Shown: piece by piece, positions 24,582 through 26,092 of the stretch | Position numbering within the stretch: the stretch's first letter is position 1 | Layout of the letters: every line of letters begins with the position of its first letter | Virus record (IMG/VR): IMGVR_UViG_3300045988_158394 | Length of the DNA: 64,000 bases | Source of the DNA: a virus | Lineage: Duplodnaviria; Heunggongvirae; Uroviricota; Caudoviricetes | Direction: 5' to 3' (one strand) | Notes under the pieces: generated by a model | What the model was told of the DNA's origin: nothing | What the model saw: the letters and a program-made list of their open reading frames with translations, nothing else | Databases searched by the model: none | Program-made: the position numbers and the translations under genes

Positions 24582-24609
24582 ATCAATACCACTGCTTGAT
24601 GAGAACCGC

Positions 24610-24880
24610 GCAAATGTTGACTATGCGCGAAGGTTAATGTGAATAGTTGACTATGCGCGATGTGACTACAGTCAAAAGTTGACTGTAGTCGATTTAACTC
24701 CACCAAAGATCGACTATGTAAGATATTGTCGGGAGAAACGTTGACTATACGCGATGAAATGACCCTAAAAGCCATCTCAATAGCGACTTGCAGAATATTG
24801 ACGCCAGCAAAAATCCACCAGCGTCAACGAATGTCGCCTATAGTCAACTTCTCGCTATCGCATATAGTCAATATTATGGA
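24610..24880. repeat. Iteron array downstream of repA (incA-like copy-control locus)
   Basis: At least 8 copies of GTTGACTAT(G/A)CGCGA-like repeats in both orientations; track ORFs across this region are judged non-coding. Confidence 0.65.
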
Positions 24881-25758
24881 TTGCGCTTATGGATCTGGAA
24901 GCCGATTTTTCTGCCGTTTTTTATCTCTGAAAATTTAAGATATTCAATAGCTTCCAAATCTTTCATGGCTTTTCTGATAACGCTATTTTGCACGCTAACG
25001 GATGATTTGAGATTAAGCCTTGCTCTAAGGCGCTCAATGCTGACAGGTGCCGGGTTGGCGGGTAGAGCCTCAAAGAATGTATACAGCACCTTGGCCGTCT
25101 CTTTGCGCCCGAGCTTATCCAGCATCTTCAGCTTCAGGATTCGCTTATAGTCAACATAGTAAAGTTCAGATAGCTGTTTTTGCGGCTGGATCTCGATAAC
25201 ATCAAGCTCGGTATTCAGGCTGCTATATGCCAACAAGTTGACGTTAATGTTATTGAGATGACCTTTTGCCGCCGGGAAGCGGAATTTGACAACTGTCTGC
25301 TGAATGCGTGTCAGAGAGTCATCAATACTTTTACGGAACGCCTTTGAAAGGCGCTTACGTGGATAGCCGCATCGATCGGCAAACTCGGAGAATGGCAGGG
25401 TGATTATGCCGTCATCATCAGGAGCATAGTCAAACAACGCGGAGGTTATGCCCACCCACACCTTAAAATCAGTATCCATATCCAGGCGTGGACCATGAAT
25501 TTCAATTCCCTCATAGCCTTCCTGCTCAACAATTTTGAGGCTTGATAGTTCTTCGGTTGCGTTCGTTGTGTTTGTTGTAACTGACGATCCGCGACGTAGC
25601 GCCACATTGGTAGATTTTAAGGTTGGCACAAACACACCTAAGCGCAACAAAGCTATGGGTTGTATAGTGCTGTTGTTATTGGGCTTCAGGCTGTGGATTT
25701 CTCCTGTATTTCCTGCAACTTCTTCAACGCTAAGGAAGCCTTTACTTTCTTCCGGCAT
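24874..25758 (-). CDS. repA: Plasmid replication initiator RepA
   Basis: 294 aa; TIQPIALLRLGVFVP segment resembles P1 RepA; flanked by iteron arrays; GGAGAAA RBS. Confidence 0.7.
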   Translation of the reverse strand: MPEESKGFLSVEEVAGNTGEIHSLKPNNNSTIQPIALLRLGVFVPTLKSTNVALRRGSSVTTNTTNATEELSSLKIVEQEGYEGIEIHGPRLDMDTDFKVWVGITSALFDYAPDDDGIITLPFSEFADRCGYPRKRLSKAFRKSIDDSLTRIQQTVVKFRFPAAKGHLNNINVNLLAYSSLNTELDVIEIQPQKQLSELYYVDYKRILKLKMLDKLGRKETAKVLYTFFEALPANPAPVSIERLRARLNLKSSVSVQNSVIRKAMKDLEAIEYLKFSEIKNGRKIGFQIHKRNP

Positions 25759-25837
25759 CGTGGTTTCTCCATGTGTGGCGCGGCCTGGCGTTAATTTAGA
25801 TGACTGTTATCAACAGCTGTGAATATTCAGGCTCTAA

Positions 25838-25940
25838 AATCGCGTACAGTCAACGTTTCTGTCGCGTATAGTCAACAATAAATCGCGTGCAGTCAACATA
25901 AAATCGCACACAGTCAACATAAAATCGCGTATAGTCAATG
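25838..25940. repeat. Five direct iterons upstream of repA (origin/incC-like)
   Basis: AAATCGCGT(A/G)(C/T)AGTCAAC repeated 5 times at roughly 21-bp spacing. Confidence 0.7.
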
Positions 25941-26052
25941 TTGATCCCGTTTCAGGCCACGAACGGCGCGGCTTACAGCGATCCGGGATCTTCTTTGGAT
26001 CTTCCTAGGTTCTCTTTGGGATCTGTTTATTGGATCTATGCTGTGGATAAGT
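25941..26052. other. Plasmid origin elements: GATC cluster plus DnaA box
   Basis: Six GATC sites within about 95 bp and a perfect DnaA box TGTGGATAA at 26042-26050; DnaA-like TTATCAACA at 25806-25814 on the other side of the iterons. Confidence 0.6.
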
Positions 26053-26092
26053 TGAATAAACCGGCCAACATAGCCGGTTGGAAGGAAGGGTA

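Follow-up and report, generated by a model that had tools for sequence, protein, structure and literature searches.

P1-like phage-plasmids carry, at the same position, replicases of two families that are typed as IncY and p0111, and the compatibility of the two has been inferred (PMC7969092). The p0111 type is treated as a replicon type separate from IncY (PMC7969092; PMC9603915); it was recorded in 24 of 55 P1-like elements, among which phage JL22 has the p0111 gene repA' and an unknown gene, gp57, in place of the IncY repA (PMC9603915). The reference gene for p0111 typing is AP010962.1 (PMC11165635). The p0111 replicon is a standard typing target, and that it takes the place of IncY in P1-like phage-plasmids has already been published. 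In PMC6906374 iterons are mentioned for P1 only, and a literature search returned no paper pairing "p0111" with "iterons"; the iteron map of the p0111 replicon given here may be the first to be set out explicitly.

The P1 replicon is annotated in the order parB-parA-incA-repA-incC-Dam sites-DnaA boxes-upfA. Its origin comprises five incC iterons spaced 22/21/21/21 bp, five annotated Dam sites and, at the outer end, two tandem DnaA boxes. Its incA locus holds nine iterons, three direct ones beside repA in the orientation of incC and six inverted distal ones, with a spacing of 30-31 bp that widens to 40-41 bp across the junction of the two groups. The locus considered here lies in a window of 64 kb (the whole stretch of DNA that was analysed), and an initial annotation made from the letters of the sequence had described it as a replicon with P1 oriR/incC/incA organisation and with iterons and a RepA N-terminus unlike those of P1.

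Results

Identity and prevalence of the replicon

The interval 24600-26060 contains one long ORF, repA on the minus strand (Table 1), whose product is 100% identical to RepA of phage RCS47. Comparison with p0111-type replicons had been proposed in the initial annotation as a check, and alignment of the region with pO111_2 (NC_013370) gave 98.2% DNA identity over 2,501 bp, with 292 of 294 RepA residues identical. We take NC_013370 to be the RefSeq copy of AP010962 (pO111_2, from E. coli O111:H- 11128). Judged by rep nucleotide identity to pO111_2, the PlasmidFinder reference for p0111, the replicon belongs to that type. The 1.6-kb region is likewise 97.3-99.4% identical to phages RCS47, phi456, SJ46 and JL22 (the last matched directly, at 97.3%) and to several records named "P1". 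The module is present in 415 of 5,426 complete E. coli genomes and in 556 PLSDB plasmids, with few exceptions on plasmids about 90-100 kb in size. The replicon is the known p0111 type of P1-like phage-plasmids; it has been described already and is not a discovery.

Table 1. Position, strand and character of the features of the replicon and its partition module (a dot stands where no single strand applies).
Feature	Position	Strand	Remarks
P1-type partition module	21302..23603	-	parA 22407-23603, parB 21389-22390, parS 21302-21384
Replicon cassette differing from P1	23703..26052 (about)	.	2.35 kb in place of ~1.6 kb in P1
Passenger ORF, 269 aa	23772..24581	-	N-terminal T5orf172/endonuclease-like domain; flanked by the incA-like iterons and the par promoter
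incA-equivalent control locus	24616..24872	.	iterons of both orientations, six strong and two degenerate
repA	24874..25758	-	294-aa initiator of the Rep3 WH1-WH2 family; GGAG RBS 8 nt upstream of ATG
Internal iteron-like site TTCGCTTATAGTCAAC	25140..25155	+	codons V202-R206 of repA; 20-21 bits
Two inverted DnaA-box-like sites, TTATCAACA and ATATTCACA	25807..25826	.	25807-25815 and 25818-25826; one mismatch each; between the iterons and the repA start
incC-equivalent, five direct iterons	25839..25939	+	presumed RepA binding sites of the origin; consensus aTCGCGTAYAGTCAAC
GATC (Dam site) cluster	25943..26036	.	six GATC in 94 bp, four within GGATCT heptamers
Perfect DnaA box TTATCCACA	26042..26050	-	outer end of the origin

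Borders of the cassette and its passenger ORF

The borders of the cassette that differs from P1 were set by local blastn and global alignment against P1, and its left junction falls just upstream of the par promoter, its right junction at the upfA terminator hairpin. On the left, positions 21706-23705 (par promoter, parA, parB) are 99.6% identical to P1; on the right, from about 26053 onwards, identity is about 97-98%, ranging from 95 to 100% per 80-bp block, and the flanking genes parA, parB, upfA, mlp, ppfA, upfB and dmt are 97-99.6% identical to their P1 counterparts. Across 23706-25964, blastn against P1 returned nothing except two short repA segments at 76% identity. Inside the cassette the GATC/DnaA module, which blastn did detect, is the one recognisably P1-like part (73-77% nucleotide identity): six GATC heptamer positions are common to P1 and the window, and each of the two lacks GATC at a different one. 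The idea that this module is retained P1 backbone was considered and rejected, because its identity of 73-77% is set against 97-99% for the backbone and because the same module accompanies the replicon in the D6-like relative described below.

The cassette also includes a passenger ORF, which matches PF10544 in Pfam with 26.9 bits (cut-off 20) and, in PHROGs, phrog_2876 (unknown function) and weakly phrog_681 (endonuclease). It is intact in the window, disrupted or shortened in pO111_2 (where it is split) and in pE148-2, and corresponds to the "unknown protein gp57" of JL22 (PMC9603915). A PADLOC scan of this 269-aa ORF found nothing, and so lends no support to a defence role.

Relatives of the initiator

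A search of genome contigs with RepA recovered one identical locus and nothing more diverged; the diverged relatives were taken from a protein search. There, RepA belongs to a tight clade at 85% identity or more, followed by a Proteus protein at 53% and by RepFIB-family proteins at 44-49%; with its best non-p0111 matches only 44-53% identical, the replicon falls outside IncFIB/RepFIB. The Proteus relative has an iteron of its own, TTGTTGATGCTAGTCGAT, also at 21-bp spacing. The relative with 85% RepA identity and about 75% nucleotide identity (L008) lies in a D6-like phage-plasmid, e.g., NZ_CP085065.1, and retains the outer DnaA box, all six GATC and five origin iterons at 21-22 bp. It further has a perfect DnaA box, TGTGGATAA, aligned to a one-mismatch box of the window in the midst of diverged sequence. 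Such conservation of sites amid diverged spacers is the pattern predicted by selection on protein-binding sites.

Initiator gene and origin

RepA of the window and RepA of P1 are 42% identical over 272 aa (E = 9e-71), and roughly the first 23 residues cannot be aligned, as the initial annotation had anticipated for the N-terminus. In Pfam the protein scores 27.3 bits for Rep3_C (cut-off 21.1) and 22.0 bits for Rep3_N, marginally below the cut-off of 22.4, and the Rep3_N/Rep3_C matches of P1 RepA are similarly marginal. Its match in PHROGs is phrog_775, while an NCBIfam scan of RepA, the 269-aa ORF and UpfA assigned no family and a PDB sequence search with RepA gave chance-level matches only (E > 0.3). 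A consensus sigma-70 scan of 23600-26120 detected no convincing repA promoter, the stretch within and beside the origin iterons included (minus strand, 25760-25940), and inspection by eye of the hexamers around the last iterons yielded no better candidate; each iteron has a TTGACT hexamer, but no -10 element fitting it was seen 16-18 bp away. That RepA represses its own gene by occluding the promoter is therefore put forward by analogy only.

Upstream of repA, i.e., at higher coordinates since the gene is on the minus strand, the five direct iterons start at 25840, 25862, 25883, 25904 and 25925, and their spacing of 22/21/21/21 bp is the same as in P1. Each scores 24-27 bits with a position matrix. 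The consensus given in the initial annotation, TCGCGTRYAGTCAAC, is exact in three of the five and has one or two mismatches in the other two; allowing up to three mismatches it matched 14 times as compared with 4.3 +/- 2.2 in shuffles, and 14 matches were reached in 0 of 100 shuffles. A position matrix derived from the repeats recovered 12 sites at 20-29 bits, the next best site across the 64-kb window having 9.3 bits. Across variants the iteron cores TCGC and AGTCAA are invariant and the central 4-5 bases vary. The P1 iteron, GATGTGTGCTGGAGGGAAA, is unrelated in sequence to that of the window.

The GATC cluster is the sole place in the window with at least five GATC per 100 bp (window mean 0.4 per 100 bp), and its six GATC compare with the five annotated Dam sites of P1. 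It is presumed to be the methylation-sensitive, strand-opening part of the origin; the module has 50% AT and is thus not A+T-rich. The window holds three perfect DnaA boxes, one of which marks the outer end of the origin, where P1 has two tandem boxes; the adjoining 26052-26060 is a degenerate second box only. Every p0111 variant keeps this outer box, as does the D6-like relative. The features on which the comparison with P1 had been built, namely direct iterons at roughly 21-bp spacing, a GATC cluster and DnaA boxes upstream of repA (one perfect and two with a single mismatch), were hence all recovered, and the P1 organisation was reproduced in an element-by-element match to the annotated P1 replicon.

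Control array and the iteron-like site inside repA

Downstream of repA, two strong direct iterons at 24834 and 24858 lie next to the gene in the orientation of the origin iterons, and four strong inverted ones occupy the distal part (24616, 24646, 24678 and 24740), the distal group being spaced 30-32 bp. Two degenerate sites of about 6 bits each are in phase with them, one direct (24813-24828) and one inverted (24709-24724); the D6-like relative has a good iteron aligned to that at 24709, and that at 24813 stays degenerate there. The array is accordingly composed of three direct and five inverted iterons, one of each group degenerate, compared with three and six in P1. At least eight iterons in mixed orientation had been claimed for this side of the gene: the mixed orientation stands, whereas six are strong and the number of eight is attained only by counting the two degenerate sites.

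A further iteron-like site is found inside repA (Table 1), oriented like the iterons of the origin and with CGA as its arginine codon. It is identical in the D6-like relative, though flanking synonymous sites differ: five of its five codons are the same, as against 47% of same-residue codons overall (P ~0.024, from one comparison). In the Proteus relative, too, repA contains an iteron, inverted, perfect over 19 nt and located elsewhere in the gene; P1 repA contains no site within five mismatches of P1's own iteron. These findings are suggestive of a function for the internal site, which may be bound by RepA and serve, for example, as a transcriptional roadblock or as an extra handcuffing partner.

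Partition module and co-residence with IncY elements

The partition module adjoining the cassette is essentially that of P1. ParA and ParB are identical to their P1 counterparts at 397 of 398 and 332 of 333 residues, respectively, and in parS every ParB box, of the A and the B kind, is that of P1, the five differences being confined to the spacer and IHF-site region. Judged by ParB and the parS boxes, the partition specificity is that of P1; incB, the third incompatibility determinant of P1, is therefore retained, and partition-mediated incompatibility with P1 should persist. The unrelated iterons and the 42%-identical initiator argue, in turn, for a replication specificity separate from IncY. 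The different incompatibility group proposed in the initial annotation thus holds for the replication determinants equivalent to incA and incC, and does not hold for incB.

Co-occurrence of the two replicon types was estimated by inclusion-exclusion over complete E. coli genomes, with a chimeric query for their union. The p0111 cassette was found in 415 genomes (415 records), the IncY cassette in 359 genomes (360 records) and the chimeric query in 772 genomes (775 records). Both types are consequently present in only 2 genomes, whereas 27.5 would be expected from the raw genome counts if the types were independent (Poisson P ~5e-10), and no record among the complete E. coli genomes had both cassettes. 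Co-residence of p0111 and IncY elements is possible and strongly depleted. The depletion could be explained by common partition and immunity functions, or by population structure.

Discussion

We consider the region, with a probability of about 0.93, to be a p0111-type plasmid-prophage replicon of a P1-like phage-plasmid that most likely works like P1 oriR/repA/incA, a mode of working suggested by the homology of RepA and the matching architecture. By analogy with P1, RepA monomers would bind the five in-phase iterons of the origin and host DnaA the boxes at either end of it. The adjoining module of GATC heptamers would be the place where the duplex opens, and re-initiation would be gated by the Dam methylation state of this module, under control by Dam and SeqA. 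RepA on the origin iterons would repress repA, and the downstream array of eight iterons would hold the copy number at about one per chromosome through titration of RepA and handcuffing with the origin iterons. Initiator and iterons would constitute a cognate pair, unrelated in sequence to that of P1, so that the replicon should be neither initiated nor inhibited by the RepA and iterons of P1/IncY.

The high similarity of the flanking genes to P1 (97-99.6%) is what would be expected of an ordinary P1/P7 (IncY) replicon, the initial annotation being mistaken about the P1 sequence. The cassette between those genes contradicts this: an IncY replicon has repA and iterons near-identical to those of P1 (K02380), and on alignment neither proved to be P1's, RepA being 42% identical, the iterons unrelated and blastn matches across 23706-25964 limited to the two short segments at 76%. 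We give this explanation no weight. More can be said for a replicon of RepFIB type (IncFIB/"IncHI1B"), acquired from an F-like or HI conjugative plasmid and foreign to the P1 lineage, as several records name the protein "RepFIB replication protein A", these plasmids are typed as IncHI1B by PLSDB/MOB-suite, and RepA is about as close to RepFIB-family proteins (44-49%) as to P1 RepA (42%). Yet a sharp gap separates the clade at 85% or more from the rest (next 53%, the bulk at or below 49%), no F-like or HI plasmid was found with this RepA at high identity, and the DnaA/GATC module is specifically P1-like. The closest diverged relative, moreover, resides in a D6-like phage-plasmid and not in a conjugative plasmid, and p0111 has been reported only in the P1-like community (PMC9603915), all of which makes capture from such plasmids very improbable.

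Slightly less probable still is that the locus is an inactive relic and that the element is kept by another replicon or by integration. A few copies are indeed chromosomal (8 of 462 places) or situated in large cointegrate plasmids, and a metagenomic relative (L010) has an internally deleted repA. In the window, however, repA is intact, and all elements are 97-100% conserved in hundreds of P1-like plasmids of about 90-100 kb, and the annotated regions listed for these plasmids include no second plasmid initiator; RCS47, SJ46 and JL22 persist as plasmids (PMC9603915), and a relative at 75% identity has preserved the functional sites. A working p0111 replicon of P1-like design remains by far the preferred reading of the locus.

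What the present analysis adds to the published typing is a map showing origin, iterons and control array, the exact junctions of the cassette relative to P1 and the retention of P1 partition specificity, together with a rough population-level sign that p0111 and IncY elements seldom share a cell; the iteron inside repA and the sister replicon of D6-like elements are minor additions. More speculatively, it may be shared partition and immunity functions, and not the type of replicon, that decide how incompatible P1-like phage-plasmids effectively are. If functional, the site inside repA would represent a control layer undescribed for P1-type replicons; that it is a functional RepA site and that, at the same time, the replicon swap leaves P1-like elements not freely co-resident is, as a joint proposition, rather unlikely in our estimate. 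Because p0111 elements bring along ESBL genes and further resistance genes, annotation profits when the replicon is recognised correctly.

Among described systems, the RepFIB replicons (IncFIB; SSU5-like phage-plasmids) have an initiator of the same Rep3 WH1-WH2 family at 44-49% identity and are likewise iteron-regulated and low-copy, but belong to a different clade and different backbones, with DNA similarity only in short stretches of repA. The D6-like relative has the same architecture, iteron cores and GATC/DnaA module and an identical internal iteron; it differs in having 3 + 4 control iterons, ACAT instead of GTAY in the iteron centre, and a D6-like tail/baseplate backbone in which neither a T5orf172 ORF nor a par operon adjoins the replicon. 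With P1 the order of the annotated genes and sites is identical, whereas the iteron-like site within repA and the 269-aa ORF are present in the window and absent from P1. The p0111 elements pO111_2, RCS47, SJ46, JL22 and phi456 are the closest of all, 98.2-99.9% identical over the 2.5-kb region and with the same flanks and passenger ORF; they differ from the window in a small number of substitutions, most of which fall in spacers and in the centres of iterons, and in nothing of substance.

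Results and discussion

The replicon cassette of this P1-like phage-plasmid adjoins a partition module that, by sequence, is of the P1 type (Table): its parS differs from that of P1 by five substitutions, all of which fall within the spacer and IHF-site region. A sister of the p0111 replicon is found in D6-like phage-plasmids, where the encoded RepA is 85% identical, nucleotide identity is about 75% and the architecture is as in p0111; the corresponding position in other D6-like plasmids is occupied by a different replicon. From these two observations, an exchange of replicon cassettes seems to take place across the P1/D6 supergroup. 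Among complete E. coli genomes, the p0111 cassette was present in 415 of 5,426 and the IncY cassette in 359 of 5,426; both occurred in only two genomes vs. 27.5 expected, an expectation that ignores phylogeny, and no single record in this set carried the two cassettes.

The 269-aa ORF accompanies the p0111 cassette, placed between the control iterons downstream of repA and the par promoter. It is probably dispensable, since it is split or shortened in the plasmids pO111_2 and pE148-2. As this putative GIY-YIG-like nuclease adjoins a swapped cassette, it may help the cassette to spread.

The iteron-like site inside repA is unchanged in the D6-like relative with the 85%-identical RepA, with synonymous sites nearby differing. 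P1 repA is devoid of an internal iteron-like site, and the repA of the Proteus relative contains a perfect inverted iteron at a position other than that in the window gene.

Outside the replicon, pO111_2 has dmt annotated at 3,042 bp and phage RCS47 at 3,288 bp, and these departures from the window and P1 gene suggest an insertion-type length polymorphism. The nomenclature of the replicon also deserves consideration: the MOB-suite typing distributed with PLSDB designates the p0111-replicon plasmids NZ_CP019188.1 and NZ_AP024520.1 as 'IncHI1B', a label that is at odds with p0111, the PlasmidFinder designation followed in published papers, and that could mislead; RefSeq names the RepA protein 'RepB family'.

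Table. Location of the features considered
Feature	Sequence	Position	Strand	Remarks
parS	window	21302-21384		all ParB A and B boxes identical to P1
parB, parA	window	21389-23603		P1-type partition module
269-aa ORF	window	23772-24581	-	N-terminal T5orf172/endonuclease-like domain; phrog_2876, unknown function
Strong iteron-like site	window	25140-25155	+	inside repA coding sequence, codons VDYKR
dmt methyltransferase gene	window	29555-31819	+	754 aa, same as P1
Sister replicon of p0111	L008	3185-4640		E. coli contig DABKFZ010000018.1; also plasmid NZ_CP085065.1
Inverted iteron	L011	3922-3942		inside Proteus repA
Control array	L011	4331-5000		Proteus mirabilis contig, downstream of 53%-identical repA

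Downstream of its repA, the Proteus locus carries 11 tandem 43-bp units with iteron-like cores (GTTGAAGCAAGACGAT), a control array much longer than that of either P1 or p0111.
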